NCBI GenBank assembly: GCA_964507445.1
Contig: CAZDQF010000012.1
Coordinates: 65,989 to 129,988 of the forward strand
Direction of reading: 5' to 3'
Origin: an uncultured Isosphaeraceae bacterium
Lineage (GTDB): Bacteria; Planctomycetota; GCA-002687715
Length of the DNA stretch: 64,000 nt
Numbering within the stretch: position 1 is the first letter of the stretch; each line of letters starts with the position of its first letter. Below the pieces are notes generated by a model. That model saw only the letters and a program-made list of their open reading frames with translations, did no database searches and was not told the DNA's origin. The position numbers and the translations under genes were made by a program. Below, piece by piece: positions 13,997-43,069 of this stretch.

Positions 13997-14017
13997 GGGA
14001 GGACCTTAACCGGTGGG

Positions 14018-23100: not shown

Positions 23101-26100
23101 TCCCACCAGGCCGCTGTCGGTGGTGCAGACGATGGCATGCCAGCCTGGTGACAGGTTGACGGAGGAGGTCACCCCGTCGACGCCGTTGGCGATGGCGGCG
23201 TCCCGTGGCCTGAAGTCCGAGGTGGTCCCCGGGTCGAACAGACGCCACTTCAGGGGCGCCGCGTCGGACATGGTGATGTCGTACGTGCCCGCTGTCGTCA
23301 CACTGAATTCGAACGTCCTGATGACGCGGTTGGTGGGCCACGAGGCGATGGTGTAGGGCGTCCCCATGGCGAGCGTCACGTTGTAGGAACGCATGATGCT
23401 GGCGCCGTCCGTGCCGCTGACCCGGCTGGCGATGCCGTTGGCCTGATTGACGGGGCCGTTGCGGCCGTTGGCGATGACGAAGTCGGTGATGGCTCCCGAG
23501 GATCGGGAATGGACGCCGCCGATGCCGATGTCCCAGTCGGAGGTGGAGGCGCAGCCGACGGCGTTCCAGCGATTGAAGTCCAGAGTGAAGCTGAACGGGC
23601 TGCAAGGGTTGACGACGGATACCGGTACGGCGGTTGGAAGGGTGGTGTTCTGGAGCGCCGTCGGGCTGTAATGGACGGTGCCGTTCCAGACCCGGGGCGA
23701 GTACGTGCTTCCGAAGGGGTAGGTCTTTCCGGCTCCCTCCAGGATCTGGAGATTGGAATCCGCGGCATAGACCGCGCCGGCGGTCGTGCCGTTGGTGTAC
23801 TTGATGCCCGAGCCGTTGGTGACGGTGACGTAGAAGCCCTGGGTCGTGCCCGCCGTCATCGGCGTCATCAGGCTGATGGGGAGCGGCGTCGGGGCATTCA
23901 GGCCGTTGGAGACCACGCCGGCGGCCGACCCGATCAGAGTCCAGGCCGAGGAGTTGGTCTCGTTGCCGACGAAGGTGCCGCCTCCGGTGACCCCGTAGAC
24001 CTCGAGGTCCCACGTCCCCACGTCGAGGTTGACGTCGAAGCCGCAGATGCTGACGTCGTTGATGGCCACCAGATCGAACATGTTGCCGGCCTGGCCGTTG
24101 TTGCTCGCGAAGGTCGTGGTCAGTCCCGTTGCCTGGGAGAAGTTGTTGATGATGAAGGGCAAGGACGCCGAGGTCCCGCCCCCGGGGAGCGGGCTCTCCA
24201 CCAACACCGCCGCCGTGCCCGTCGTGGTCAGGAAGTTGTCCCCCACCAGAGCCTTGAGGGTGTTGCCGTCCTCGAAGGTGGTGGTCAGGGTGGTGCCGTC
24301 GAACTTGACCGTGGAGTCGGCGACGAAGCCGGACCCGCTGACCGTGATCTGCAACGGATCGAAGGTGTTCTCGTACCAGGTGATCGCGGAAGTGCTGAGG
24401 GACAGGGAGAGGATGTCGAGGTCGCCGTCGCCGTTGAGGTCGCTGGCGAACACGTTGTTGGCGTAGTCCGCCGTGGTGGAGACGACGTTCTCGGGCCCGA
24501 AAGAGCCGCCGAGGTTCTCGTACCAGGCGATCTTGTCGTCGAACCGGGACGCCGACAGCACGTCGCGGTCGCCGTCGCCGTCCAGATCGGCGGCGAACAC
24601 GCTCACGGCGCCGTCGGCGCTGCTGCTGATCACCTGCTGGGTCCCGAAAGACCCGCCGAGGTTTTCGTACCAGGCGATCTTGTCGTCGCCTTGAGACGCG
24701 GAGAGGACATCCACGTCGCCGTCGCCGTCGAGATCGGCGGCGAAGACGCTACGGGCGCCCTGCGCGTTGGTGGTGATCGTCTGCGGGGTACCGAATCCCC
24801 AGGGGAAGTTCTCGTACCAGGTGATGCGGTTGTCGCCCTGGGACGCCGACAGCACGTCGGCGTCACCGTCGCCGTCAAGGTCCGCGGTGAAGACGTCCAT
24901 GGCGCCCATCGCGTTGCTGGTGATCAAGTGCTGGGGCCCGAAGGAGCCGCCGATGTTCTCGTACCAGGCGATCTTGTTGTCATCGCGGGACGCGGAGAGG
25001 ACGTCGAGGTCGCCATCCCCATCGAGGTCCGCGGCGTGAACGGCGTAGGCGTAGGCGAGGTTGCTGGTGATCACCTGCGGTGCGCCGAAGGACCCGCCGC
25101 CGAGGTTCTCGTACCAGGCGATCTGGTTGCTGGGCAGGGAGACCGAGAGGACGTCGAGGTCGCCGTCGTTGTCGAGGTCGCCCGTGTGCACGTCAACGAA
25201 ATGACTGTAGGTACCAGCGTGGACCACGACGTTTTGCGGGGCTCCGAAGGATCCGCCGAGGTTCTCGCACCACCGGACGGCGTTGACCGTGGTGCCGAGG
25301 ATGTCGTTGTCGCCGTCACCGTCGAGGTCGGCGGCGTGGACGTCCCATGCGAAGCCAAAGCCCGTCGCGATCACCTGCTCCGGGCCGATTCCACCGGCCG
25401 GAGTGACGACGGGGCTGCTGTCCGGGGTGACCGAGGTCAGCGTCGGGACCGGGTTCACGAAGGTGACCGTGAACGGCGTCGAGGCCGACGTCCCGCCGCC
25501 TGGCGACGGGTTGAAGACCTCCACGTCGTGGGTCCCTGCCGTGGCGACGTAGCTCGCCGGGATGGTGCATCGCAAGAGGCCGGGCAGCACCAGGGTGGTG
25601 GGCTGGCTCAGGCCATTCCATCGGATCACCGAGCTGGTGTTGAAGCCGGAGCCGAGGAGGTCGAGGCTGAAGGACCCGCTGCCGGCGGTGGTGGAGGACG
25701 GGAACATGCCGGTGACCGAGGGCGTCGGGTGACCGATGAGTAGGGTCTGGCTCGGGGAGAATCCGCCCCCCGGGGCCGGGTTCTCGATGCTGATGGCAGC
25801 GGTTCCGACGGTGGCCGTGAGGGATGAGGGTACGGATGCCGTGAGCTGGGACGTGCTGACGAAGGTGGTGGCCAGAGGGGTGTTGAGAGTCGTGCCGCTC
25901 CAGTGGACCATCGCGCCCGAGACGAAGTTGGAGCCGTTGGCGGTCAGGGTCAGGGTGCCGCCGCCGACGGTCGCTGACGTGGGGGCGATCGACGTCAAGG
26001 TGGGTAACGGGTTCGATCCAGGGATGCTGTCCACGCGGACCTGGAACGACAGGCTGCTGGCGGGCGCACCGAAGGGGTGGGTGACGGCGATGGCGTGCCA

Positions 26101-29392: not shown

Positions 29393-32300
29393 TTAGAGCT
29401 GGTCAGGGTAGCGGGGCCATTGGAGGGTGAAGCCCACCGGTGAGCTGGGGTTGATGTAGGCACCCTGCACCGTGATGCTCCAGCCGAGGGCCGGGTTGGG
29501 GAGGGTGAGACCCGGGAGGGTGAACTCACCGGCGGCGTCGTAGACGATGCCGGGGATCGGAGGTCCGAAGACACCGATGCCGTCGATCACCACGAACCAG
29601 TCCCCCGGGACCGCCGGCTGGGAGCCGCGGACCGACAGCACGAAGTCTGCCGCGGGGCTCGGCCACGGATAGATGGGGGTCGGGTTGGTGAGGTCCGCCA
29701 GCAGCAGCAGCGGGAAGCCCGGCAGGCCGCTCTCGCAGCGGGCCCCGTAGGACTCGCCCGGCAGCGGCGCCAGCGGGTTGCGGGTGACGGTGCCGGCGTT
29801 GCTGCCGAGACCGCCGACCACGCACGCCACCGCGTTGGACGGCACCGTGTGGGCGTTCTCCACCGCGATGGCGAGGCCGCCGCGGCGCAGGGCGCCGAGC
29901 ACCGTCGGGCCCACCTGGCAGCTCAGGGTGGAGCTGTTCAGGTAGGTGGTGGGCAGGGCGTAGCCGTCGGCGTAGGCGACGGTGCCCGGATGGAAGTTGG
30001 TCCCCGTGATGGTGATGGTCTGAGCCGGTGATGCCGCGGTCAGGATGGGGATCGAGGACGGCGTGATGTTGATGATCGAAGGCGCAAGCACCGGGAACGA
30101 CAGGGCGCCGGAGGCGCCGCCGCCAGGACCGGCGGTCTCCACGTCCACGTTGGCGGTGCCCGGCGTCCCGATGAGGGCCGCGGACACCGTGGCCTGCAGC
30201 TGGTTCGAGGAGACGAAGCTCGTGGGCAACGGGCCGCCGTTCCAACGCACCTGGGAGTCACCGTTGATGAAGTCGGAGCCGTTCACGTTCATGGTGAACG
30301 TGGCGTCGCCGGCGACGGCGAACGTGGGCGCCACCGAAACGATGGACGGTGTCGGGTTCTCAACGGTGAAGTTGGTGGAGCCCAGACCGCCGCCGGGCGC
30401 CGGGTTCTCCACGCTGACCAGCACCGATCCGGCGGTGGACAGGGATGCGCCGGGCACCGTGGCGGTGACCGCGTTGGCGCTCACCAGGGTGGTGGCCAGA
30501 CCCAGCCCGTTGAATCGGATCACCGAGCTGCTGTTGAAGTTGGCGCCGTTCACCGTGATGGCCAGGGGGCCGCTGCCCACCACCGCTGAGGCGGGGCTGA
30601 CGGAGGCCACCGTGGGCACCGGGTTGTTGACCGTGAAGGTGCTGATGGGAGTGATGCCGCCACCGGGTGACGGGTTGAACACCTGCACGTTCCGGGTCCC
30701 GGCGTTGGTGATGAAGCCGGCCGGGATGGTGCAGCGCACCAGCGTCGACGACACCAGGGTGGTGGACTGGCTCAGACCGTTCCACCGGATCACTGAACTG
30801 CCGTTGAAGTTGGAGCCGCTGACGTTGAGGGTGAAGGCTCCGCTCCCTGCGGTGGCCGACGACGGGCTCAGGGAGCTCAGGGTCGGCGCCGGGTTGTTGA
30901 TGGTGAAGGTCTGGCTGCCGGAGATGCCGCCGCCGGGGGCGGGGGTCTCCACGTCCACGGACGCGGTGCCGGCGCTGGCGATGAGCGCGGAGGACACCGA
31001 GGCCGTGAGCTGGCCGGAGTTCACGTAGGTGGTCGTCAGGTTGCTGCCGTTCCAGCGGATGCTGGAGCCGGAGATGAAGTTCGATCCGTTCACGGTCAGG
31101 GTGAAGGAGGAACCACCAGCGAAGGCCGAGCTCGGCGACAGGGACGAGGTGGACGGCGCCGGGTTGGGCGTCGGCTCCACGGTCACGGAGAAGGTCGGTT
31201 GTGACGACGGGTCCGCGGTGGCGTGGTAGACGCTGATGGCGTGCCACCCGGTGGTGGAGAAGGTCCGGGTCAGCGTGGTGCCGCCCGCCGCGCCCAAGGC
31301 CACGTAGTCGTTGTCCGATCGCCAACTGGCGTCCGTGCCCGGTTCATGGAGTCGCCACGACAGGTTCGGGGCGTTGTCCAGGGTGATGTCGTAGCTGCCC
31401 GGGCTCGGGATGTCGAACTCGAACATGCGGATCACCCGGTTGGCCGGCCATCCGGCGATGGTGTACGGCGTCCCCACGTTCAGGGTCACCGTGTAGGAGC
31501 GCATGAGGCGAGCGCTGTCCGCTCCGGAGAAGCGAGAGGAGACGCCGTTGCTGGGGGTGACGGTGCCGTTATGTCCGTTGGCGATGACGAAGTCGGTGAC
31601 GCCGCCACCGGACCTCGAGTAGCCCGTGCCCACACCGATGTCCCAGTCGGAGGCCGAGGCGACACCGACCGCGTTCCACCTGCCGGACTCCGGCGAGAAC
31701 GTGAAGGGGGCGCAGGGACCCGCAGCCGTGGCCACACCGAACCCGGACAGGGTGGTGCTGGTGGAGACGGAACAGATGTTGGACATCACCGTGGTGGTGT
31801 CGGTGGAGGGCCCGTTGTTGCGATACAGCAGCAGGGCGTGGTACCCGGTGCTGGAAACCGTCACGTTGACGGTGCCCCCGCCGCCGTTGCCGGAGGCGAT
31901 GGAACTCGCTTCCGGGACCCAGTTGGCGTCCGATTGAGGCGCGTAGAAGCGCCACGAGATCGAGGAATCCCCGACCACCGTGATGGCGTAGGTGCCCGTG
32001 GAGGTGAGGTTCACCTCGCGCAGCTCCAGGATCTCCCCTGCGGCGAACGCGTCCACCGAGTTGGACCCGGTTGCGCTGAGGGACAGGGCGTCCTGGTGCT
32101 CCATGGTCCCGTCTGAGGAGCCGGAGAACCGGTTCACCTGACCCCATATGGGAGAGATGGTGCCGAGGTGCCCGTTGGCGAGGGCGAAGTCGGCGCCGCC
32201 CGTGTAGGAGGTCGCGCTGCCCAGCACCAGGTCCCAGTCGGAGGGAGAGGAGATGCCGACCACGTTCCATCGTCCCGCCACCGCCGTTATCCGGAAGTCC

Positions 32301-34129
32301 TGGCACGGGTCGGTGATGGTCGTCGGAACGTTGTCCGTGAGCAGGATTGACCCCGTCGCCGAGCACACCGTGACCGCGAGGCTGGTGGGGCTGACCGCCG
32401 CGACGCCGTCGTCCTTGTAGACCACGATGACGTGCCATCCGGTGTTCAGGGTCGCGCCCTGGTATGTGGAAAGGCCGACGGTCCCGCTGGCCTCCAGGGT
32501 CGTGGAGGTGCGGCTGCGCCATCCGGCGTTCGACCCCGGTGCGTACAGCCGCCAGTTGAGGTCGCTGCTGCCGCTGACGGTGATGTCGAAGCTGCCCGCG
32601 GCCGTGACCTCAAACTCGAACATCTGCATCACGTCGGTGGACCCCCAGGAGCTGGTCTCCGTCTCGCCGACCGCGAAGGTCTGGGCTTCGAGGAGGTCTG
32701 CGTAGGCGTTGGAGCCGCCGGAGAAGCGGTTCAGCTCGCCGGAGGTGGGCGCGACGGTTCCGAGGCGCCCGTTGGCGATGATGAAGTCGCAACTGCCGCC
32801 ACCGAGGACCGACGACGCATCTTCGTGGATCAGGTCCCAATCGCTGGCCGACGTGATACCGAAGCCGACCCAGCTGTTGGCCGCAGGTGTGCCGTTGAAC
32901 ACCTGGAAATCGCAGGTCACCGGGTCGGCGGCCCCGCTCTGCGAGCTGGCCAGGAACTGGGTCGAGCACCCGACGGTCTGTGCGATGGCCGTTTGCAGCG
33001 CTGGCCGGAGAATGCTGGTCCCGCTGTTGGAGCTGGTGGAGCTGGTGCCGCAGCCGCCGTTGGTGTGGATGCCGATGGCCAGGCCCGTCGCGGTGTCGAT
33101 GATGGGGCTCCCGGAGTTGCCGCCCTCGGTATCCACCCGGTGGCGGATCTGGTCGCCTACGTACCCGAAGTGCGTGCCGGTGTCCGTCTGTTGATCGTAG
33201 GCGCGGGTAGCGTTGTTGCTGTCATCCCCGTGTCCGGTGACGCGGAGGTTGGGCACCACGAACGGCGGGATGTACGCCGGCAAGGTCGTGGCCAGGCTAA
33301 AGAATGAACCCTGGTTGCCGAAAGCCGTGGTGCCTGTGGAGTTGGGGTGCAGGCGCGCGACGGCCCAGTCGTCGCCGCCTCCCGGCAGGCCCAGATTTTC
33401 GAACTGGATGGTGGATTGATCCACCGGGTACTGATCTGCGACGGGTGGGTGCTGGGCGCAGCCTGCGGCGTTGGATGCCGGGGTGTTGAATTCGGCGATG
33501 ACAAACCAGTCCGGCAGCGGGTCGGCGCAGTGGCCGGCGCCGAGGATGGTGTTGGTCGAGCTGATCAACCAACCGGTGCAGGAGCCGCACGACGCGGCCG
33601 TCATGACGAGTCGGCAGACGCGTGCGTCATTGCTCAGGGTCCGCTCGTCGCCGCTGCCGCAGATGGTGTTGGACGTGCCCAGGATGGGCTGGATCCCCGC
33701 GTAGACGGTGCGGATGACGATCTGGCCGGTGGAGCCTGGCGCCAGCTCGATGGCCACGTCCACACGGTCTCCGTTGAACCACGCGGTGTGGTTCCGCCAC
33801 TGCTTCAGGCGCAGGTGATCGAGCCGCTGGGTCTCCCCGTCTCGCGGGTTGGTCAGGATGACGGCGTCGTCAGGACCGATCTCGACGGTGTCGAAGAGCA
33901 ACTGGAGCGAATGGGCCCCGGTGACCTGGATGGGTGCGCTCCACGCTCGCCAGGGGATGTCCCTGCCGTTGCTCACCAAGCCCGAAGAGGCGGGGTAGTT
34001 GACCGCGGTGGCGATAGGTGCAGAGGGTTGGGCCACGACCGAAGGCATGGTCGCGGCGACGAGGAGGAGCGTCAGCGCTCCGAGTGCGGTGACTCGGCCG
34101 ACAGGCCGGACACTGATGGAGAGGGACAT
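29393..34129 (-). CDS. Large (about 1578 aa) secreted trypsin-like S1 protease with pre-peptidase-like repeats, about 6 IPT/TIG domains and a conserved C-terminal domain (paralog of the 17164-29004 protein)
   Basis: Internal Met MSLSISVRPVGRVTALGALTLLLVAATMPSVVAQ is a signal peptide, preceded by RBS AGGAAG. The ATG at 34129 was checked. The protease region aligns with gene 1 (SLQLLFDT...NPRDGE.QRL...WRNHTAWFNGDR; AGHC; GNSGSPI). The C-terminal 170 aa is shared with gene 1. Confidence 0.85.
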   Translation of the reverse strand: MSLSISVRPVGRVTALGALTLLLVAATMPSVVAQPSAPIATAVNYPASSGLVSNGRDIPWRAWSAPIQVTGAHSLQLLFDTVEIGPDDAVILTNPRDGETQRLDHLRLKQWRNHTAWFNGDRVDVAIELAPGSTGQIVIRTVYAGIQPILGTSNTICGSGDERTLSNDARVCRLVMTAASCGSCTGWLISSTNTILGAGHCADPLPDWFVIAEFNTPASNAAGCAQHPPVADQYPVDQSTIQFENLGLPGGGDDWAVARLHPNSTGTTAFGNQGSFFSLATTLPAYIPPFVVPNLRVTGHGDDSNNATRAYDQQTDTGTHFGYVGDQIRHRVDTEGGNSGSPIIDTATGLAIGIHTNGGCGTSSTSSNSGTSILRPALQTAIAQTVGCSTQFLASSQSGAADPVTCDFQVFNGTPAANSWVGFGITSASDWDLIHEDASSVLGGGSCDFIIANGRLGTVAPTSGELNRFSGGSNAYADLLEAQTFAVGETETSSWGSTDVMQMFEFEVTAAGSFDITVSGSSDLNWRLYAPGSNAGWRSRTSTTLEASGTVGLSTYQGATLNTGWHVIVVYKDDGVAAVSPTSLAVTVCSATGSILLTDNVPTTITDPCQDFRITAVAGRWNVVGISSPSDWDLVLGSATSYTGGADFALANGHLGTISPIWGQVNRFSGSSDGTMEHQDALSLSATGSNSVDAFAAGEILELREVNLTSTGTYAITVVGDSSISWRFYAPQSDANWVPEASSIASGNGGGGTVNVTVSSTGYHALLLYRNNGPSTDTTTVMSNICSVSTSTTLSGFGVATAAGPCAPFTFSPESGRWNAVGVASASDWDIGVGTGYSRSGGGVTDFVIANGHNGTVTPSNGVSSRFSGADSARLMRSYTVTLNVGTPYTIAGWPANRVIRMFEFDIPSPGSYDITLDNAPNLSWRLHEPGTDASWRSDNDYVALGAAGGTTLTRTFSTTGWHAISVYHATADPSSQPTFSVTVEPTPNPAPSTSSLSPSSAFAGGSSFTLTVNGSNFISGSSIRWNGSNLTTTYVNSGQLTASVSSALIASAGTASVDVETPAPGGGISGSQTFTINNPAPTLSSLSPSSATAGSGAFTLNVSGSNFNGSSVIRWNGLSQSTTLVSSTLVRCTIPAGFITNAGTRNVQVFNPSPGGGITPISTFTVNNPVPTVASVSPASAVVGSGPLAITVNGANFNSSSVIRFNGLGLATTLVSANAVTATVPGASLSTAGSVLVSVENPAPGGGLGSTNFTVENPTPSIVSVAPTFAVAGDATFTMNVNGSDFINGDSQVRWNGGPLPTSFVSSNQLQATVSAALIGTPGTANVDVETAGPGGGASGALSFPVLAPSIINITPSSIPILTAASPAQTITITGTNFHPGTVAYADGYALPTTYLNSSTLSCQVGPTVLGALRRGGLAIAVENAHTVPSNAVACVVGGLGSNAGTVTRNPLAPLPGESYGARCESGLPGFPLLLLADLTNPTPIYPWPSPAADFVLSVRGSQPAVPGDWFVVIDGIGVFGPPIPGIVYDAAGEFTLPGLTLPNPALGWSITVQGAYINPSSPVGFTLQWPRYPDQL

Positions 34130-34392
34130 TACTTCCTGGTTCCTTTGGAATGATGAGGGTCCACTGGGGTGAAACGTCGAGCGGGGGGCGGGAGACCCCC
34201 CAAGTTGTAGTGGATTCACCCGCCGCTGGGGTTTCGTGCGACAAAAAAAAGGGGATTCTGCGATTTGCAGTCGACGAAGGGGCGTCCGGAGCTCCGAACT
34301 GAGTCCCTCGGCCGGCCACGCGGCCTTCGCAAGCGCCTCTCCCGCAGTTACTTGTGCCTGCGCTCCGAGCACTCTGCGGTCGGCGCGAGGCT

Positions 34393-35661
34393 CTATCGCA
34401 GGCTGAGGCTCAGGGCGCCGCCCTGGCCGCCGCCGATGCAGAGGGTCGCGAGGGCTCTCGAGCCGTGGCGGCGTCTTAGTTCCAGGAGGCTGGTCAGCAC
34501 CAGGCGGGCGCCGGTCATCCCCACGGGGTGTCCCATGGCGATGGCGCCCCCGTTGACGTTGAGGCGTTCGGTGGGGATGGTCCCCAGCGGATCGTCTCGC
34601 GAGAGGACGTCCCTGGCGTAATCCCCGTCCTCCGCGGCTCGGAGGCAGGCCAGGACCTGAGCGGCGAAGGCCTCGTTGATCTCGATCAGGTCATAGTCGG
34701 GGAGGGGGGCGTCCGGGTGAAGGCGGCTCATGGCGTGCACCGGTCCCAAGCCCATGCGCCGGGGATCGCACCCCGCGTACGCCCATTCGTCGAGGAAGCC
34801 GAGGGGGGTGAGCCCCATGGTCTCCGCCCACCGTTCGTCCCCTACCAGCAAGGCCACCGCCCCGTCGGTGATCTGGCTGGAGTTGCCGGCGGTCACGGAG
34901 CCGTGGCGACGATCGAACACGGTGCGTAGCCTGGCCAGACGTTCAGGAGTGGAGTCGTCCCGGACTCCTTCGTCATCTCGGAGGACGCCTCCTTGATGGA
35001 CGACATCGAAGGTCTCCTCCCGGAGCTTGTCCCGACCAGCGAGGGCCTTGCGGTGGCTCTCGGCGGCGAATCCGTCTTGCGCGCTGCGTGAGATCGCCCA
35101 TTCACGGGCGAGGAGCTCCGCCGTGTCTCCCATGCCCATGCCCACTACCGGGTCGGTCAGCCCGCGGATGAGCGCGGCCTCCGGGCTGATCATGGAAGGG
35201 CGGAAGCCCACCAGGGTTCGCATCCGGGCCCACACGGAGCGGGCTCGTTGCAGTCGTTTGAACCAGGCCACCGCTCGGGGACGGAACAGGAGCGGGTAGT
35301 TGCTCATGCTCTCCGTCGCGACAGCGGCGAACAGGTCTCCGCGGCCGGCGCGTAGTCGGAGTGCGCACTGGGTGATGGCCTCGAAGCCGGAGGCGCAATT
35401 GCGGTGCACCGTCATGGCCTCGACGGATTCGGGGACGCCGGCACGAAGAGCGATCACCCTGCCGATGTTAGGGGCGTCAGGGCCCTGTCCGACGTTGCCG
35501 CAGACCACCGTGTCCAGCCGTGACGGGTCGACGTCTGTGCGCAGCAGCAGCTCGCGGAGGGCCAGGGTGCCGAGGTCGTCGGCTCCCAGGCGGCGCAGGG
35601 CCCCGTCCATCTTCCCGAGTGGGGTGCGGATTCCGGCCAGGATGCAGAGTCGTTGGCTCAC
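34393..35661 (-). CDS. fadA: Acetyl-CoA C-acyltransferase (3-ketoacyl-CoA thiolase)
   Basis: Thiolase signatures (ILAGIRTPLGK; VHRNCASGFEA; C-terminal NVNGGAIAMGHPVGMTGARL; CIGGGQGGA). GTG start at 35661 overlaps the fadB stop (GTGA). Confidence 0.88.
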   Translation of the reverse strand: MSQRLCILAGIRTPLGKMDGALRRLGADDLGTLALRELLLRTDVDPSRLDTVVCGNVGQGPDAPNIGRVIALRAGVPESVEAMTVHRNCASGFEAITQCALRLRAGRGDLFAAVATESMSNYPLLFRPRAVAWFKRLQRARSVWARMRTLVGFRPSMISPEAALIRGLTDPVVGMGMGDTAELLAREWAISRSAQDGFAAESHRKALAGRDKLREETFDVVHQGGVLRDDEGVRDDSTPERLARLRTVFDRRHGSVTAGNSSQITDGAVALLVGDERWAETMGLTPLGFLDEWAYAGCDPRRMGLGPVHAMSRLHPDAPLPDYDLIEINEAFAAQVLACLRAAEDGDYARDVLSRDDPLGTIPTERLNVNGGAIAMGHPVGMTGARLVLTSLLELRRRHGSRALATLCIGGGQGGALSLSLR

Positions 35662-37652
35662 GAGGACTCCTCCGCCCAGTGAAGCAGGCCGCCCTTCTCC
35701 GGTGGGAACCCGATCCCGAAGACGGTGCCGATGTCCACGTCTTCGGGGCACAGGACGAGGCCCTCCGCCAGGATGGCCTGCGCTTCCGTCACCATCCGAC
35801 CGACCAGCCGCGCGGACAGGTCCGGGTCCGCCGCCGCGTTCCGCCGCGAGGGTCGCCGCTTGCCGTAGGTGTAGAAGCCGCGACCGGACTTCTTGCCCAG
35901 GTGCCCCTTCTCGACCCGCTGTTCGATGCTCGGGTGAAGCTCGAACGGATTCCCGTCCCGTGTCGCCGCGTGTCGTCCGGCGTCGACGATGACGTCGAGG
36001 CCGACCTCGTCCATGAGCCGGAAGGGCCCCATGGGTAGCCCGAAAGCCCTGATGGATGCGTCTACGGACTCCCGGTCCACGCCTCCGTCGCAGATGCGGC
36101 AGGCCTCCAAGAAGTACGGCGCCAGGAGCCGGTTCACCAGGAACCCCGGACCGTCGCCGACGACGATGGGGGTCTTGCCAAGCGCCTTCGCGGCGGCCAG
36201 TCCACGGGCCAGGGTGTGGTCGGAGGTCTTCGCCCCACGGACGATCTCCAGCAGCGGCATCAACCCCGGGGGGTTGAAGAAATGCAGGCCGAGGAACCGG
36301 CCCGGGACCCCCGTGGCGTCCGCCAGCTCATCAACGGAGAGGCTCGAGGTGTTGGTGGCGATCATCGTCCGGTCGGAGGTCTCGGCCACCACCTGGGTGA
36401 GGATGTCGTGTTTGAGCTCCATGCGCTCCGGCGCCGCCTCGATGACGCAGTCCATGGAGCGGAGGCCGTCGATCTTCGTGGACACCGTGAAGCGGGTGCG
36501 GTGGAGGTGTGCCTCCGCTTTGCTCATGTCGCCACGCCGGACGCGCCGCTTCAGTTCGTTCTCGACGCGTCTCAATCCGGCGGCGAGGGCGTCCGGTTGG
36601 GGGTCGATGAGGCGCACGCCGAGCCCCTTGCCGACGGCCAGGGCCGCGATCCCGGCTCCCATGGTGCCGCCGCCGATGACCGCCAGCTCGCGGGGGCCCT
36701 CCGTGTCCCGACCGGCGCCGTAGACCGGTGGCCGGTTCCCGTCCCGGGTGAGGCGGAACAGCCGCAGCAGGTTCTCATGGGCGGAGGTCTGGAGGAGCTT
36801 CAGCACCTCCTGCCGTTCCGACTCCAGGGAGTCGGACGTGGGAGCGGTGACGGAACTCGCCATGACCTCGAGAGCGGCCATGGGCGCCGGAAACCGTCCC
36901 TTGGTCTGCTTCAGGATCGCCTTGCGAGCGAAGCGCTGGGTCAAGGCCCGTCCGGGAGGGGTGTGGTCCAGGAACCGCTGGATCATGCCCTTGCGAGGGC
37001 GCCGGCCGTGTCCTCCCCGACCCCGCTCTTCGATCAAGTCGAGGGCGACAGGGACCAGTTGCTGGCTCGCCACGACGTCGTCCACCAGGCCGAGTCTGCG
37101 GGCCTTGCGAGCGTTGACGGTCTTGCCCGCGGTGACCAGGGGGATGGCCGCCCCCAGGCCGATCAGGCGAGGCAGCCGCGTGCTGCCGCCCCAGGCGGGG
37201 AGGATGCCCAGCTTGGTCTCGGGCAGGCCGAGTTGAGTCTTGGGGTCCTCCGTCGCCAGGCGGGCGTCGCACGCGAGGGCCAGCTCCAGGCCGCCGCCGA
37301 CGCAGACCCCGTCAACGAGCGCGACGGTCACTTGTGGTAGGTGTGCGATGCGTTCGAACAGGTCCTGACCACGGCGGATCATGACCTCGGCCTCTGCTGG
37401 GGACTCCAGGGCGGCCATGGCGTCCACGTCGGCGCCGGCGCAGAACACGCCCGGGACCTCGCTGCGGAACAGGACGCCTCGGAGGTCCTTGTTGGCGACC
37501 AGCTCCTGGAGCAGCTCCTCCAGCTGCTCCACCACACCTTCGCCGATGACGAACGGAGCGTCGTCCTCGGTCCGGAAGGTGACGGCGACGACGCCGTCCT
37601 CTATCTGGTCAGCCCTGATCATCCCCATGTCGCCCGCGGATATCCTAATCAA
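35658..37652 (-). CDS. fadB: Fatty acid oxidation complex alpha subunit (enoyl-CoA hydratase / 3-hydroxyacyl-CoA dehydrogenase), FadB/FadJ family
   Basis: N-terminal crotonase domain (FCAGADVD), central NAD-binding LAVIGGGTMGAGIAA, and a 3HCDH C-terminal domain. About 664 aa. Confidence 0.88.
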   Translation of the reverse strand: MIRISAGDMGMIRADQIEDGVVAVTFRTEDDAPFVIGEGVVEQLEELLQELVANKDLRGVLFRSEVPGVFCAGADVDAMAALESPAEAEVMIRRGQDLFERIAHLPQVTVALVDGVCVGGGLELALACDARLATEDPKTQLGLPETKLGILPAWGGSTRLPRLIGLGAAIPLVTAGKTVNARKARRLGLVDDVVASQQLVPVALDLIEERGRGGHGRRPRKGMIQRFLDHTPPGRALTQRFARKAILKQTKGRFPAPMAALEVMASSVTAPTSDSLESERQEVLKLLQTSAHENLLRLFRLTRDGNRPPVYGAGRDTEGPRELAVIGGGTMGAGIAALAVGKGLGVRLIDPQPDALAAGLRRVENELKRRVRRGDMSKAEAHLHRTRFTVSTKIDGLRSMDCVIEAAPERMELKHDILTQVVAETSDRTMIATNTSSLSVDELADATGVPGRFLGLHFFNPPGLMPLLEIVRGAKTSDHTLARGLAAAKALGKTPIVVGDGPGFLVNRLLAPYFLEACRICDGGVDRESVDASIRAFGLPMGPFRLMDEVGLDVIVDAGRHAATRDGNPFELHPSIEQRVEKGHLGKKSGRGFYTYGKRRPSRRNAAADPDLSARLVGRMVTEAQAILAEGLVLCPEDVDIGTVFGIGFPPEKGGLLHWAEESS

Positions 37653-37670
37653 CCCCGGGCCGCAGGGGGA

Positions 37671-38585
37671 TCAGCGAATCGAAGCCCAGCCCGGGTTGAG
37701 GTGGGGCAGCAGCTCGTCGCGGACGTTGGCGGCCGCCGCGCGACCACGCTCCGCCATCTCCGCCGCCTGGTTGAAGTCTGACCAGGGGAGGCTGTCCACG
37801 TCAGGGTGGATGATGACATCCGCGAGGGAGAGGACGTGGTCACGGAACACCGTCCCGGCGATCTCCTCCATCCTCATCATGACCCCGAGGGCGGTCTCGC
37901 AAGTCTCGAGGGGGGTCACCGCCCGGCTCACGTCTGCCGCGATGACCAGGGACGGGTTGTAGTAGCGACACTCCTGGGTTGGCAACGGAGAGAAGATGCC
38001 GATGTCCGAGAGCAGCATGCCGTCCAACTCCACCGGCGGGAAGATGCCAGGGAGCGAGGCGGATCCACGGACCGCCTTTCGGAGATTGCCCTTCTCGAGG
38101 ACCACCCGCCTGCCGCTACGAAGATCGATGGCCACGATGGTCAGGGGAATGCTGGCGTCGGCGATGTCGGCGTCGGGCAGCACGTTGTCGGCGACGTCCT
38201 TGAGCAGCTGGGATGCCAGCAGGCCCTTCTTGGTCACCACGCGGTTGAACATCCGGTTGGCGCGGAGGTACTCGCGGATCTGGTTGAACCAGCCGACCCC
38301 GCCGTCCTTGCCGTCTCCGTTCTGGTTCTGACCTCGGCTGGCGCCCATCATGGACTTCTGGTGCGTCTGGAATCGGTCGCTGGTCACGTAGTCGATGACC
38401 CGCTTGGAGATCACGTCGGCGTCGGGCTCGAAGGCATAGGCGGCGCCAACGATGCTGCCGATGCTGACGCCGACGATGCGGTCCGGTCGGATGGGGCTCT
38501 GCTCCAGCACCTCGAGGACGCCAAGGTGAGCGAGCCCGCGGGCGCCGCCGCCACCGAGAGCGACCACCACCGGACCACGGCTCAT
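37671..38585 (-). CDS. Patatin-like phospholipase family protein
   Basis: Oxyanion hole GGGGARG, nucleophile elbow GVSIGS (GxSxG), and a downstream catalytic Asp region. ATG overlaps the stop of the upstream ligase gene (ATGA). Confidence 0.82.
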   Translation of the reverse strand: MSRGPVVVALGGGGARGLAHLGVLEVLEQSPIRPDRIVGVSIGSIVGAAYAFEPDADVISKRVIDYVTSDRFQTHQKSMMGASRGQNQNGDGKDGGVGWFNQIREYLRANRMFNRVVTKKGLLASQLLKDVADNVLPDADIADASIPLTIVAIDLRSGRRVVLEKGNLRKAVRGSASLPGIFPPVELDGMLLSDIGIFSPLPTQECRYYNPSLVIAADVSRAVTPLETCETALGVMMRMEEIAGTVFRDHVLSLADVIIHPDVDSLPWSDFNQAAEMAERGRAAAANVRDELLPHLNPGWASIR

Positions 38586-40093
38586 GGGGTCGTGCCCTGC
38601 TGCTCGGGGATCAACTGCGTGCGGCGGTCCACGATGCGGACCTCCTTCATCTCTTCCTCCATGCCGACGCGTCGCAGCAAGGAGTTGACGTCTTCGATGA
38701 CCACCTCGTTCAGGTGAAGCTCGCAGCGTTCACTGACCACGTCCTGGATTCGATGTCGGAAGCGGTCCCGGTCCGCCCCGTCCTTGAGCGCGGCGTAGAG
38801 GACCAGCTCGTCCGTCTCGAAGGGGTCGTCGTTGAGCTTGCGGATCTCAAGTTGCCATTCCTCGACCTCCAGGTCGCCGCTGAAGGCCTCCGAGAGGGTG
38901 TTGAGGTTGACGAGGCAGCCCTTCACCTTGCCGATGTCCAGGCTCTTGACGTTGGACGTGCGTTGGATGTCGGACATGATCCGCGGGACGGTGCGCCCAC
39001 ATCCCGGGCAGGGCTCGGAGACGATGCCGCCTTGGACGATATCCCCGGTCCTGTAGCGCAGGACCACGCTGCCCCGCCCGTCGAGGGATGTGTAGACGAG
39101 CTCCCCCGTCTCGCCTTCCGGCAGCGGCTCGCCGCTGTCGGGATCGACGATCTCGAACAGAGCCAGGTCCGGGTACGTGTGGAACCCGGTCCGACGAGCG
39201 CCGGTGCACTCCGCCCAGCATTGCCGGGCCTCCGTGAATCCGAGCACGGAGGCGACGCGGACGTCCTCGGCGCCGCACTCGGCCATGAGCTCGACGACCT
39301 TGCGTTTGAAGCCTGCCGGCACGTTCTCGCCACCCAGCGCGACGATGCGCACCGAAGACATGTCGAGCCCGTGTTCCATCATGCGTCGGAGCACGTGATA
39401 GTAGTAGCCGGGCATGGCGACGATCACGGTTGGCTTGAGCCGCTCGAACGCGGCGATCAGCCGATCCGTGGGCATGGAGCGACCGCCGCCGGTGTTCAGG
39501 GACAGGGTCCCCGTGGCGATGCCGGCGAAGGTGGTCTGCCAGAAGGCGAGGTGCGGCGCGTAGGGGAACAGGTTCAGGACCCGGTCGTCCCCCGGCCGGA
39601 TACCCACGACCTCTGACAGGCGCCGTCCGGACTCCATGAGCAGTCGGTGGTCATAAGGAGTCAGGAAGAACGGGATGGACCCGGAGCTCCGACCTGTCGT
39701 GAAGAACATGCTGCATGGGTTGAACTCCCGGAAGAGTCGTTCCCGTAGTCGCTTCTTGCCCAGCAGGAGCTTCGTGCCCAGGAGCTTGAGCTTCTCGCTG
39801 GTCGGCAACGCCGTCTTGATCAGGTGCTCGTTGGGCTGGAGGATCAGGTCCTTGGGGCCGTTCGGATGGGCTTCGCTGACCAGGATGTCGGCCTTCGTCG
39901 TGAACGGGATGCGGCGCAGGTCGTCCAATGTGCGGACGTCTCCCGCCTCCAGGCCAGCGGACTCGAACAGCCTCCTGTACAAGGGGCTGAACGGGAGTAC
40001 CCGCGTCCTCAGGTGTTTCCTGAGCTTGGCTTCCTGGAGGGCTCGGATCTCTCCGGCGGAGAGATGACCCCAGGATCCTCTGTTGCCCACCAT
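38582..40093 (-). CDS. Phenylacetate-CoA ligase-like (PaaK / coenzyme F390 synthetase family) adenylate-forming enzyme
   Basis: N-terminal LQEAKLRKHLR...IPFTTKADI, typical of PaaK-family ANL enzymes. About 500 aa with an AMP-binding core and a C-terminal domain. Confidence 0.7.
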   Translation of the reverse strand: MVGNRGSWGHLSAGEIRALQEAKLRKHLRTRVLPFSPLYRRLFESAGLEAGDVRTLDDLRRIPFTTKADILVSEAHPNGPKDLILQPNEHLIKTALPTSEKLKLLGTKLLLGKKRLRERLFREFNPCSMFFTTGRSSGSIPFFLTPYDHRLLMESGRRLSEVVGIRPGDDRVLNLFPYAPHLAFWQTTFAGIATGTLSLNTGGGRSMPTDRLIAAFERLKPTVIVAMPGYYYHVLRRMMEHGLDMSSVRIVALGGENVPAGFKRKVVELMAECGAEDVRVASVLGFTEARQCWAECTGARRTGFHTYPDLALFEIVDPDSGEPLPEGETGELVYTSLDGRGSVVLRYRTGDIVQGGIVSEPCPGCGRTVPRIMSDIQRTSNVKSLDIGKVKGCLVNLNTLSEAFSGDLEVEEWQLEIRKLNDDPFETDELVLYAALKDGADRDRFRHRIQDVVSERCELHLNEVVIEDVNSLLRRVGMEEEMKEVRIVDRRTQLIPEQQGTTP

Positions 40094-40207: not shown

Positions 40208-40864
40208 TTAGAGATACTTCAGGGGGTTCTCCCCGAGGACCCGTCTCCAGTGCTCAAGGCCTCGCTTCAATTGCTGGGAGACCGTGTTCTTCTTCACGTT
40301 GAGGATCTCCGCAATCTCCGTGCGGCTCTTGCTTTGCAAGCAGGCCAGGTCGAGCACCTCGCGGTACGTCTCCGGCACGGTCTCCAGGGACTCGACCAAC
40401 CGCTGCCGCAGGTCCTTGCGGCCGATCTGCGTCGCCGGACCGGCACCCGTCGCGGCGGGATCTCCTCGCGGTGCGTCGCTGTCGTCGTTGGGATCGAGAG
40501 CTGCCAGATCCTCCCTGCCTTCGTCGTGACGACAGCGGTCGAGGATCACCCAGTGCACCTGTTTGCGGAGCCAGTCGAGGAAGCTCCCCTTCTTGCGGTA
40601 CTCGAACTGATCGATCTTGCGGATGGCTCGCCACCACGCTTCGTTGATGATCTCGTCCGGATCGTGCCGCGTCCGCATGGCCGGGCCCAGCTTGTGGGCG
40701 ACGAACAACCGCAGGCGCAGAGCATAGCGACGTTCGAGGAACTGGAGCGCTCCTCCAGCGTTGGCGTCCCGCCGGAGGGCCTGCACCCAGACCTCCGAGT
40801 TCTCGTGCTCCGCCGGGTCCGGGAGGGACCCCGAGTTCTGTGGACTGTCTTGTGACTCAGCCAT
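40208..40864 (-). CDS. ECF-type RNA polymerase sigma factor (sigma-70 family, regions 2 and 4)
   Basis: Region 2 (DEIINEAWWRAIRKIDQFEYRKKGSFLDWLRKQV). Region 4 HTH (YREVLDLACLQSKSRTEIAEILNVKKNTVSQQLKRG). The track ORF's low-complexity His/Arg-rich N-terminal extension (to 41686) is rejected because it overlaps the divergent transporter gene. Start is MAESQ at 40864. Confidence 0.8.
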   Translation of the reverse strand: MAESQDSPQNSGSLPDPAEHENSEVWVQALRRDANAGGALQFLERRYALRLRLFVAHKLGPAMRTRHDPDEIINEAWWRAIRKIDQFEYRKKGSFLDWLRKQVHWVILDRCRHDEGREDLAALDPNDDSDAPRGDPAATGAGPATQIGRKDLRQRLVESLETVPETYREVLDLACLQSKSRTEIAEILNVKKNTVSQQLKRGLEHWRRVLGENPLKYL

Positions 40865-41186
40865 CGCGTGTACCGAACTCCGCCATTTTAGCAGGGGGAG
40901 CGCCGCTCCAGGGCGGCGGGAGCTCATGACGGCCAGTTGGTTTTCTTCGGCATGCCCGGATTTCGACGCTCGAGGCGGCGGGTGGGGGTAGAGTTCCCCG
41001 GATTGACATGGGTCGTGCAGCCCGCGACGACCGCCGTCAACTCCGCGACAGACAACCCGGTCGCATCGGGCCCTCAGCCGTGTGCCTCGTTGTTTCGTTT
41101 GGCTGTTCACTGCTGCATCATGGGGCAGGGGTGGGCCTACGGACGGCAGGTGGTGTGACCTTCGGGTGGTTCTTCGGCGAATGGGC

Positions 41187-41221
41187 CCGGGTGCCGTCAG
41201 GTGCCCGGGCCGTTTTTTTTG
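41187..41221 (+). terminator. Intrinsic (rho-independent) terminator in the 5' leader/intergenic region upstream of the DASS transporter gene
   Basis: cccgggtgcc-gtca-ggtgcccggg is a 10-bp stem (two G-U pairs) with a 4-nt loop, followed by ccg and a T8 run. It lies 70 nt upstream of the transporter ATG on the same strand. Confidence 0.55.
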
Positions 41222-41293
41222 GCCTCGCGCGATCGTCGTTCCGCTCCATGGCACTTCTTGCGACCGGCGACCTTCGGTTACCCTGCCCGGCGC

Positions 41294-43069
41294 ATGGATG
41301 GGCAGAAGATCGTCACCCTGGTCGTGCTGGCCGCCGCCATCTTCGCGCTCGTGCGCGAGCTGCTGCCGATCGGCCTGATCGCCTTGCTCGCGCCGCTGAG
41401 CCTGGTCTTGATGGGGATCATGGCGTCGAAGGACATGTGGGCGGGGCTGGCTCACGAGGCTGTGGTCGCTGTCGCGGGGATGTACGTGGTGTCCGTCGGG
41501 GTGTCGCGCACCGGTGCCGTCGCGTTCCTGGGCGAGGCGTTCTCGCGCTTCGCGGACCGGGGTCGTCGCCGGATCGTGGGCGGGATGATGGTGGTCGTGG
41601 CGGTGATGTCCGCGTTCATCAACAACACCGCCGTCGTGCTGTTCTGCCTTCCCATCGTCCTGGCCATGTGTGAGCGCAAGGACCACCCACCGAGCCGCTA
41701 TCTCATCCCGCTCTCCTTCGCCTCCATTTTCGGTGGGATGATGACGCTCGTGGGGACCTCCACCAATCTGGTGGTGGCCACCGTCGGGAAGAGCGCCACG
41801 AACGGACAGTTCAGCCCGGGCATGTGGGATTTCTTCCCTGTCGGCGTTCTCTTCGTCATCGTCGGGGTCGCCTACATGACCATGTTCGGCGTCAAGCTGC
41901 TACCGGATCGGGCGGCGCTCTCCATGACGCTGTCCCGCGGTGTCCCTACGGACTACGTCACCGAAGCCGAGGTCTTGCCCGAGTCCGCTCTGGCGGGCCG
42001 GACCCTCGGTGCCATCTCGGAGAAGTACGACCTCCGCGTCTTGCAGTTGGTCCGTAGCGACATCATCGAGGTCCCTGCCAAGGGGACGGTCCTCAAGGTC
42101 GGGGACGTCCTCCTGGTGAAGGGGGGGGCCAGCCAGATCTTCGACCTGACCAGCGGCGCCGGCACAGCGTTGCTGCCCGGAGTGGATGAGGAGGACGTCA
42201 GGGCGCGGCGAGTGGACATGACCCTCGCGGAGGTCATCGTGCCGCCGTCGTCTCGCTGGATCGATCGGCGGGTGGATGAGATCGGTTTTCGCGCGCGGTA
42301 CGGTGTCTCGGTGATCGCGCTGCAGCGTCATGGTCATCACGTCCGTCAGAAGGTCGGCGAGCTGCGAGTGGAGCCTGCGGACACGCTCCTGGTCCAGGGT
42401 GAGGTGGAGAGCCTCAGGAACCTGCGGGCGTCCGAGAACCTGATCCTGATCGAGGGAGTGCAGGAGCACGTGCGTGAGCACGCCAAGGCTCCGGTGGCGC
42501 TCGCCATCCTCGCTGGCCTCGTGGGCATCGTCTCCACCGGTCTTCTTGACATCGCCACCGCTGCGGTCGTGGCCGCATCGGTCATGGTGTTGACCAGGTG
42601 CATCACGGTCCAGCAAGCGTACGCGGCTCCGGATTGGAACGTCCTGTTCTTGCTCGCCGGGTTCCTCGCCCTGGGGACGGCCCTCGACGACGTGGGGCTG
42701 GCCCGTGATGCCGCAGGGGGGCTCGTCGGAATCCTGGAGGGAGCTCCCGCGTGGGTCGTGGTGGGCGTCATCTACCTGTTCGTGGCCTTCTTGAGCGACC
42801 TCCTGTCCAATCAGGCGACGGCGACTCTCATGATCCCCGTCGTCGTGGCGGCGGCGAAGCAGCTTCAATGGAGCCCGGAGCCATTGCTGATGACCATTGC
42901 TTTCGCCGCGTCCGCCGCGTTCCTCACGCCCGTGGGGTACCAGACCAACCTGCTGGTGTACGCCCCTGGCGGTTATCGGTTCCGGGATTTCCTTACTGTG
43001 GGTTTGCCCCTCCGTTTCATCTTCGCCGTCGTGGCCGCGATCACGATCCCCCTCGTCTATGCCCCTTGA
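41294..43069 (+). CDS. DASS/SLC13-family anion transporter with two central TrkA-C regulatory domains
   Basis: About 12 TM segments, SLC13 signature region (SFASIFGGMMTLVGTSTNLVVA), two TrkA-C-like soluble domains in the central loop, and a duplicated permease half. Confidence 0.82.
   Translation: MDGQKIVTLVVLAAAIFALVRELLPIGLIALLAPLSLVLMGIMASKDMWAGLAHEAVVAVAGMYVVSVGVSRTGAVAFLGEAFSRFADRGRRRIVGGMMVVVAVMSAFINNTAVVLFCLPIVLAMCERKDHPPSRYLIPLSFASIFGGMMTLVGTSTNLVVATVGKSATNGQFSPGMWDFFPVGVLFVIVGVAYMTMFGVKLLPDRAALSMTLSRGVPTDYVTEAEVLPESALAGRTLGAISEKYDLRVLQLVRSDIIEVPAKGTVLKVGDVLLVKGGASQIFDLTSGAGTALLPGVDEEDVRARRVDMTLAEVIVPPSSRWIDRRVDEIGFRARYGVSVIALQRHGHHVRQKVGELRVEPADTLLVQGEVESLRNLRASENLILIEGVQEHVREHAKAPVALAILAGLVGIVSTGLLDIATAAVVAASVMVLTRCITVQQAYAAPDWNVLFLLAGFLALGTALDDVGLARDAAGGLVGILEGAPAWVVVGVIYLFVAFLSDLLSNQATATLMIPVVVAAAKQLQWSPEPLLMTIAFAASAAFLTPVGYQTNLLVYAPGGYRFRDFLTVGLPLRFIFAVVAAITIPLVYAP

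Follow-up and report, generated by a model that had tools for sequence, protein, structure and literature searches.

Introduction

In Enterobacteria, the small RNA (sRNA) genes of the OxyS-oxyR, GcvB-gcvA and SgrS-sgrR pairs lie divergent from the gene of their regulator. The envelope-stress sRNAs MicA, RybB and MicL of Escherichia coli and Salmonella are sigma-E dependent and are not encoded beside rpoE. Lineage-specific sRNAs are common, but our literature search brought up neither an sRNA nor a promoter map from Planctomycetota or Phycisphaerae. Here we analyse a stretch of 64,000 nucleotides (nt) from an uncultured Isosphaeraceae bacterium of the Planctomycetota (assembly GCA_964507445.1, contig CAZDQF010000012.1, positions 65,989 to 129,988, forward strand), referred to below as the window. 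Our subject is the intergenic region between a gene for an extracytoplasmic function (ECF) sigma factor on the minus strand and a transporter gene on the plus strand. The original prediction drew attention to an intrinsic terminator in this region and offered a riboswitch, an attenuator or a small RNA as its explanation. We find it likely that the region holds an independent non-coding RNA gene of about 220 nt, which is read on the plus strand and points away from the ECF sigma gene.

The arrangement resembles that of OxyS, GcvB and SgrS in that the candidate would be a stand-alone RNA in the range of about 100–230 nt, with its own (here predicted) promoter and a Rho-independent terminator, and in that it stands back-to-back with a gene for a transcription regulator in an arrangement kept in relatives. 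In contrast to those systems, the neighbour is an ECF sigma factor rather than a LysR or other DNA-binding regulator, and the candidate has no sequence or Rfam relationship to any of the three. With MicA, RybB and MicL it shares an intrinsic terminator and, possibly, a role as the RNA arm of an ECF sigma circuit. However, those sRNAs have sigma-E type promoters and no homology to the candidate. Aligned upstream regions, inspected by eye, contained no consistent ECF-type −35/−10 motif shared by the RNA and the sigma gene. Because the presumed promoter box of the RNA resembles an ordinary −10 type that also precedes the sigma and transporter genes, dependence of the RNA on the neighbouring sigma factor is not indicated.

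Results and Discussion

Anatomy of the candidate RNA

The divergent intergenic region is 429 bp long, in keeping with its first description. The parts of the predicted RNA unit, all on the plus strand, are as follows.

40985–40994, plus strand: GGGGTAGAGT box, presumed extended −10 element of a putative RNA promoter
about 41001–41220, plus strand: predicted small RNA transcript of about 220 nt, its putative 5' end 7 nt past the −10 box and its 3' end at the T-tract
41000–41044, plus strand: 5' stem-loop SL1 in minimum free energy (MFE) folds, with outer stem GGAUUGAC / GUCAA-CUCC
41046–41063, plus strand: block A, a linker with ACCCG (41055–41059) that can pair with block B and so close the central domain
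41064–41161, plus strand: variable central helical domain, folding as one long irregular hairpin in the window
41162–41180, plus strand: block B, TCGGGTGGTTCTTCGGCGA, invariant and immediately before the terminator
41184–41220, plus strand: intrinsic terminator, made up of a 12-bp hairpin (41184–41211), one G and T8 (41213–41220)

The terminator hairpin reads GGCCCGGGTGCC-GTCA-GGTGCCCGGGCC, as determined by sequence reading and a terminator scan. Its stem has 12 pairs (10 G-C and 2 G-U) around a 4-nt loop, so that the 10-bp GC stem, 4-nt loop and T8 originally described are a correct core to which two further pairs are added. Runs of at least six T occur only twice in the 64 kb, counting both strands: at 34243–34250 (minus) and at 41213–41220 (plus). 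Only the second follows a strong hairpin, the 45 nt before it folding at −29.6 kcal/mol, and 41184–41220 is the sole canonical intrinsic terminator within the window. Since just one of the two T-runs carries a strong hairpin, in a genome of 65% G+C, the terminator is not a chance feature. Terminators of this hairpin-plus-T-tract kind seem to be unused by the protein genes of the window.

The last T of the T8 run lies 73 nt before the transporter ATG at 41294 (the distance first given was 70 nt). No plus-strand protein gene lies upstream of the terminator, as had been claimed; the left neighbour is the ECF sigma gene, on the minus strand.

At the other end of the predicted RNA, GGGGTAGnnT is invariant across all lineages in which we found the element (listed below) and sits 5–7 nt before the first hairpin in each of them. 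The sequence GGGTAGANT occurs once in the 64 kb, both strands considered. A T-run is present 25–34 nt upstream of the TAG of this box in aligned upstream regions. Short G+C-rich palindromes that differ in sequence abut the box and enter its GGGG (CCCGGCTTGCCGGG in L002, CCTCCGGGTACGGAGG in L060 and CCCGCGACGGTGCGCGGG in L071, with an equivalent at 40960–40984 in the window). We also considered a GGGG...CCCC hairpin around the −10 box as part of the RNA and rejected it because L071 and L069 keep GGGGTAG and lack the complementary C run.

The element is conserved in seven lineages

Relatives were gathered by transporter-based searches, by sigma-based searches and by one DNA pattern scan of Joint Genome Institute (JGI) metagenomes. 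All are uncultured marine Planctomycetota, represented by metagenome-assembled genomes (MAGs) and metagenomes; one more distant locus is labelled Phycisphaeraceae. The RNA element was found in seven lineages, including the window, at the following positions of each locus.

Window: 40985–41220, plus strand
L001: 3671–3906, plus strand (L064 is identical and L009 near-identical)
L002: 57–272, plus strand (L074 is a close partial copy)
L060: 1755–2048, plus strand
L068: 2873–2653, minus strand
L069: 2847–2561, minus strand (L070 carries the same RNA)
L071: 2856–2615, minus strand (L072 has the same gene context)

Matches by nhmmer to L001, L002, L009, L060, L068 and L069 had E values from 1e-66 to 4e-11, and the L071 element was recognised by eye. 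A covariance model built for the element, R1, scored 53 bits on the window (E about 1e-10). Neither nhmmer nor R1 found a second copy in the window, or anything in L003, L004, L061, L065 or L066. When JGI metagenomes were scanned with TCGGGTGGTTCTTNGGCGA, 54 loci were returned; a terminator and promoter box accompanied the match in L009 only, and the remaining loci are chance matches, apparently inside longer genes. The original prediction held that lack of conservation among relatives would count against it. Conservation is what we found, with covariation well supported in four of the lineages, though the conserved unit is not a leader.

The most conserved part of the element is block B. Whole-RNA identity between lineages is 55–74%, and within this background all seven share an identical CGGGTGGTTCT(G)TNGGCGA (18–19 nt). 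Allowing up to 3 mismatches, the window still contains a single copy of it. A terminator follows the RNA in 7/7 lineages, with compensatory differences in the stem (for example GGCCC..GGGCC vs GACCC..GGGUC). It is weaker in L002, where the hairpin has apparently collapsed, and in L071, where T5 stands behind a 4-nt spacer. The apparent collapse in L002 (250–272, MAG DT_84) leaves GGCTCCGGGCC in place of two arms of about 12 nt; it may stem from misassembly of an inverted repeat, or else be a genuine deletion.

A 5' hairpin is found in every lineage 5–7 nt past the box, and its stem sequences differ: ACGAGCG/CGCUCG type in L001, L002, L068 and L069, GACG.. in L060 and UGAAGGCGACGCC in L071. The ACCCG core of block A, with related flanks (GACAGACA / GAUCAAAG; GGUCGC / GUUGC), is present in six of the seven lineages and reads AACCG in L071. 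Two stretches are complementary to the CGGGU of block B: ACCCG in the linker and (A/G)CCCG on the 5' side of the terminator stem. RNAalifold favours pairing of block B with the terminator arm in L060 (1992–2025) and L069 (2625–2590, minus strand), corresponding to 41162–41195 in the window. Pairing with this arm, like a local hairpin that block B can form, is weaker than pairing with block A. A T-loop or tRNA-like reading of the GGUUC in block B was rejected on inspection, as it has no closing stem.

A C/U-rich stretch recurs in the central domain (CCCUCA, CCUCCUCCUU, CCCCCUCCUCUCC and CCUCCCUGUCC). It lies at 41071–41080 in the window, about 3765–3780 in L001 (in a hairpin loop), about 155–170 in L002 and about 1888–1900 in L060, and could be a candidate anti-Shine-Dalgarno seed.

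The element was compared to known families as the original prediction had proposed. Using cmscan with Rfam 15, we found nothing at gathering scores across the whole window, and only chance-level matches in 40500–41700 at E up to 10. Five homologous loci searched at E up to 1 likewise gave chance-level matches only, and ARAGORN detected no tRNA or tmRNA. The scan therefore yielded no family match, and the data support an unclassified, clade-specific sRNA family outside Rfam 15.

An invariant block of 18–19 nt amid 55–74% identity exceeds the needs of most base-pairing seeds, and this raises the question of whether the RNA instead binds a protein and titrates it, as 6S RNA and the CsrB family do. 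The protein could be an RNA-binding protein, RNA polymerase or the sigma factor. Two observations agree with such a role: no anti-sigma gene adjoins that of the neighbouring ECF sigma factor, and we found no convincing complementarity between the RNA and the sigma mRNA. The candidate is also similar to 6S RNA (RF00013 and relatives) in size and in being a non-coding RNA near a sigma gene. However, the 5' hairpin, the central hairpin and the terminator are separate structures in MFE folds, unlike the 6S rod, whose 5' and 3' ends pair and which has a central bubble. Rfam gave no 6S match, even at E up to 10. The RNA also does not have the repeated GGA motifs of CsrB, and the invariant block occurs just once per RNA. 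We consider a protein-binding or sequestering RNA, in place of a base-pairing one, rather improbable.

Genomic context separates the RNA from the transporter gene

We regard genomic context as the decisive evidence on what the element is. The RNA is divergent from an ECF sigma gene in six contexts (window, L001, L068, L069, L071 and L074), with orthologues of the sigma factor (P0122–P0127) adjoining it in the latter five. Among the loci whose upstream flank is known, L060 is the one exception, having the RNA with no sigma gene upstream. What follows the terminator differs between lineages.

Window, L001 and L002: transporter gene on the same strand, its ATG 73–95 nt past the terminator
L060: pilin-like gene starting 295 nt past the T-tract and, further on, the transporter
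L068, L069 and L071: a convergent gene, reached at its 3' end (PilZ in L068, secretin in L069 and sulfatase in L071)

Conversely, the species of L069 and L071 have transporter loci (L061 and L003, respectively) in which a pilin-like gene precedes the transporter and the RNA is missing, and the more distant transporter orthologues of L004, L065 and L066 also have no RNA upstream. Because the downstream gene varies across lineages, the RNA is not a leader of the transporter, and the terminator stands next to the transporter in the window as a side effect of how the genes of this lineage are ordered.

These observations bear most directly on the proposal of a riboswitch or attenuator, in which the transporter mRNA would carry the RNA as its 5' leader and termination would be conditional, overridden by a ligand, a protein or the ribosome. 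Such systems do combine structured RNA with a strong terminator shortly before a transporter gene, as seen here in three lineages (window, L001 and L002, 73–95 nt before the ATG). Block B, the 3' strand of the closing helix, moreover has two possible partners, block A and the terminator's 5' arm (ACCCGG in L060 and L069, GCCCGG in the window), which is antiterminator-like. However, this alternative pairing comprises 4–5 bp and is weak compared to the 12-bp terminator, and we regard it as too weak to act as a switch. In L068, L069 and L071 the RNA meets the 3' end of a convergent gene and has nothing downstream to control; an element that runs into a convergent gene end cannot be a leader. The next gene in L060 is a different one (pilin-like), so that four lineages show no link to a downstream transporter, and five transporter orthologues (L003, L061, L004, L065 and L066) have no leader. 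The interior between blocks A and B, where an aptamer-like core would be expected to be conserved, is the least conserved part: its architecture shifts between two-way and three-way, and only the closing strands are invariant. Finally, a conserved −10-like box stands between the terminator and the transporter ATG, and no Rfam riboswitch model matched. Synteny thus largely refutes the riboswitch/attenuator explanation, which we consider very improbable. Of the three explanations originally offered, the independent small RNA is the one that agrees with the conserved box and terminator in seven lineages; the other two conflict with the variable downstream genes, the transporter's own box and the Rfam result.

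Pilin and secretion genes of related lineages were also noted, in the regions L061 1–2887, L003 3335–3910, L069 1–2540 and L071 1–2616. A prepilin-like gene (N-terminus GFTLVEL) stands directly before the transporter in L061 and L003, and T2SSE and T2SSG (type II secretion) genes lie further upstream in L061. A secretin gene is found beyond the RNA terminator in L069 and L071, with the sulfatase gene intervening in L071. Genes of this set may separate the RNA from the transporter in related lineages. In L060 the pilin-like gene alone intervenes, and nothing intervenes in the window, L001 or L002.

Paired positions change on both sides

Base pairing was counted in the window, L001, L009, L002 and L068 (four lineages), using an alignment fitted to model R1. 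Among 57 proposed pairs, 95% of cells hold standard pairs, and 15 of the pairs are changed on both sides. None of 500 column shuffles reached these values, and in slid controls, where partners were moved by 1–3 columns, pairing fell to 35–44%. Within this four-lineage set, five pairs of helices 1–2 (SL1) have changed on both sides. Helices 4–6 (central domain, alignment A7) are 94–100% paired and include eight such pairs. The count was limited to four lineages because L060, L069 and L071 could not be reliably aligned globally. The 5' hairpin is kept in those three as well, equally far from the box, though its stem sequences are unrelated.

The pattern of conservation could also be read at the level of DNA, with the blocks as protein-binding sites or promoter elements of the divergent sigma operon and the terminator as a stand-alone insulator. 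The best-conserved parts are indeed short invariant blocks without covariation, and the element stays beside the sigma gene in six contexts, as expected of regulatory DNA. Against this, the helices between the blocks keep their pairing through two-sided changes. Block B is some 300 nt from the sigma start, past a variable region, and in every lineage a strong terminator on the same strand comes directly after it, even where it faces the end of a convergent gene. The element also persists in L060, which has no sigma gene there. We judge it quite improbable that the conserved blocks act only as DNA.

No conserved reading frame

Conservation could alternatively reflect a small protein, encoded by a short plus-strand open reading frame (ORF) such as 40937–41158 or a frame through block B, with the terminator ending its mRNA. 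Such ORFs exist mechanically, and the single variable base of block B is a third codon position in one frame. However, when three frames were compared in the seven lineages, no frame through block B shared a start, a stop or a peptide. The lineages differ by indels whose lengths are not multiples of three, and block B itself is interrupted by a 1-nt insertion in L071. In the window the frame through block B continues into the transporter gene, and the 73-amino-acid ORF has no Pfam match. A small protein gene is hardly credible on these data. The ORFs 41008–41673 and 41082–41378, described in the original prediction as low-complexity and overlapping the real genes, both exist mechanically, and neither is conserved across lineages.

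A model for the RNA and its possible function

Conservation, anatomy, independence from the downstream gene, the lack of a conserved ORF and covariation are computed results, and they are most simply accommodated by an independent RNA gene. From them we infer the ends of the transcript, its expression, the identity of its promoter and its function as follows. We place the presumed start of transcription near 41001, about 7 nt past the GGGGTAGAGT box. In the predicted fold, a 5' hairpin is followed by a central helical domain that pairing of block A (ACCCG) with block B (CGGGU) would close, and the RNA would end at the hairpin-T8 terminator at 41184–41220. The terminator would set the 3' end of the RNA and thereby insulate the transporter gene, which is presumably read from its own −10-like box at 41276–41284 as a leaderless or nearly leaderless mRNA. 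The RNA itself would most likely be a trans-acting regulatory RNA that makes contact through the invariant block of 18–19 nt, whether this serves as a seed for base pairing or as a site for protein binding.

Several results weigh against this model. A scan by E. coli sigma-70 rules found no promoter at the RNA, and both the predicted 5' end and the presumed promoter are derived from a consensus-like box. The covariation comes from four lineages and a structure-fitted alignment. L060, L069 and L071 have extra hairpins and, in their folds, a three-way central domain, and they align reliably only from block B on (MAFFT, model R1). The ACCC:GGGU pairs are invariant in alignment A7 and therefore provide no covariation for or against pairing of blocks A and B. 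Folding z-scores of the RNA body (−0.6, +0.6, −0.75, −2.4, −1.1, −1.2 and −2.85) are only modestly beyond shuffles; given the GC-rich background, they were discounted as support. The known distribution is narrow, the single JGI scan with the exact block having added one further copy. Lastly, when duplexes of the RNA with the region of the sigma translation start were predicted, their energies were no better than shuffles, and no target was found there.

The RNA is probably tied in function to the operon headed by the sigma gene, which encodes an AMP-ligase and a patatin. We propose this tie because the position beside the sigma gene is conserved, as in known pairs of an sRNA and a divergent regulator. 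Direct targeting of the sigma mRNA was considered and set aside: an 8-nt match of AACUCCGC to GCGGAGUU is present in the window only, and duplex energies are at shuffle level. A stronger proposal makes the RNA the dedicated partner of the ECF sigma factor, whose gene has no anti-sigma gene beside it. The RNA would then control the activity or synthesis of the sigma factor or serve as the main post-transcriptional effector of a lipid-remodelling operon (AMP-ligase, patatin and FadB-like genes). We consider this unlikely; were it true, it would be the first sRNA-sigma module described in Planctomycetota.

As yet, nothing about the candidate RNA is mechanistically surprising. The phylum is largely uncultured and poorly studied, and a bounded, conserved RNA beside an ECF sigma operon provides a concrete entry point. 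The RNA can be sought in marine metatranscriptomes, and complete MAGs would permit target prediction. The case also indicates that a terminator before a gene in this setting can mark the end of a neighbouring RNA gene rather than a leader.

The sigma gene and its operon

40208–40864, minus strand: ECF sigma factor gene (Pfam Sigma70_r2, Sigma70_r4_2 and Sigma70_ECF)
40885–40890, minus strand: TAAAAT, putative −10-like hexamer of the sigma gene, read from the sequence

The hexamer lies 20 nt before the sigma ATG, with a GGAG(G) Shine-Dalgarno sequence between them. Boxes at the same distance precede the sigma gene in L068 (TAGAGT), L071 (TAGACT), L001 (TAGGAT), L069 (TAGAAT) and L074 (TAAACT). 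The genes to the left of the sigma gene (35658–40093, minus strand) encode an AMP-binding enzyme, a patatin-like lipase and a FadB-like enzyme. This row of AMP-ligase, patatin and FadB-like genes, headed by the sigma gene, is kept in the window, L064 (of the L001 lineage), L068, L069 and L071. No anti-sigma gene was found beside the ECF sigma gene in the window or in the homologous loci inspected.

The transporter gene has its own promoter-like box

41276–41284, plus strand: GGTTACCCT, −10-like box 9 nt before the transporter ATG, presumed promoter
41294–43069, plus strand: CitMHS/DASS (Na_sulph_symp) transporter gene with two TrkA_C domains (Pfam), a neighbour outside the RNA unit

The ATG at 41294 is the start of a database protein (P0001) that is identical over 591 amino acids, and the starts of orthologues agree. 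In the window, L001, L002, L060, L061 and L003, TCGG(G/T)TAnnCT precedes the transporter ATG by 9–10 nt, regardless of what lies upstream. No Shine-Dalgarno sequence was found between the −10-like box and the transporter ATG.

We located nine occurrences of the related pattern GGKTANNNT in the window. Three of these, of the form GGTTAnnnT, precede the start codon of a long ORF by 6–9 nt (14011, minus; 41276, plus; 61177, minus), one is the RNA's own box (40986, plus), and the other five are inside long ORFs and are probably due to chance. At 14011 and 61177 the distance from box to ATG is 6 nt, and the interval contains no Shine-Dalgarno sequence; the sigma gene, by contrast, has GGAG(G). Boxes of this kind without a Shine-Dalgarno sequence suggest leaderless mRNAs and an extended −10 element typical of the clade. 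By analogy, the transporter mRNA would start at or beside its ATG, downstream of the terminator, and be leaderless or nearly so. In other high-G+C bacteria, a TANNNT −10 element stands just before the start codon of leaderless mRNAs. For Deinococcus deserti, one report states that 60% of mRNAs begin at or very near the start codon, such that leaderless mRNAs can dominate (PMC4007540). The GG(G/T)TAnnnT box, together with the suggested leaderless mRNAs, would aid annotation of gene starts in the clade.

Other features of the window

Two large minus-strand ORFs were noted elsewhere in the window. The giant ORF at 17164–29004 encodes 3946 amino acids with 11 FG-GAP_3 and 5 TIG domains. The adjoining ORF at 29393–34690 encodes 1765 amino acids with a weak trypsin-like domain.

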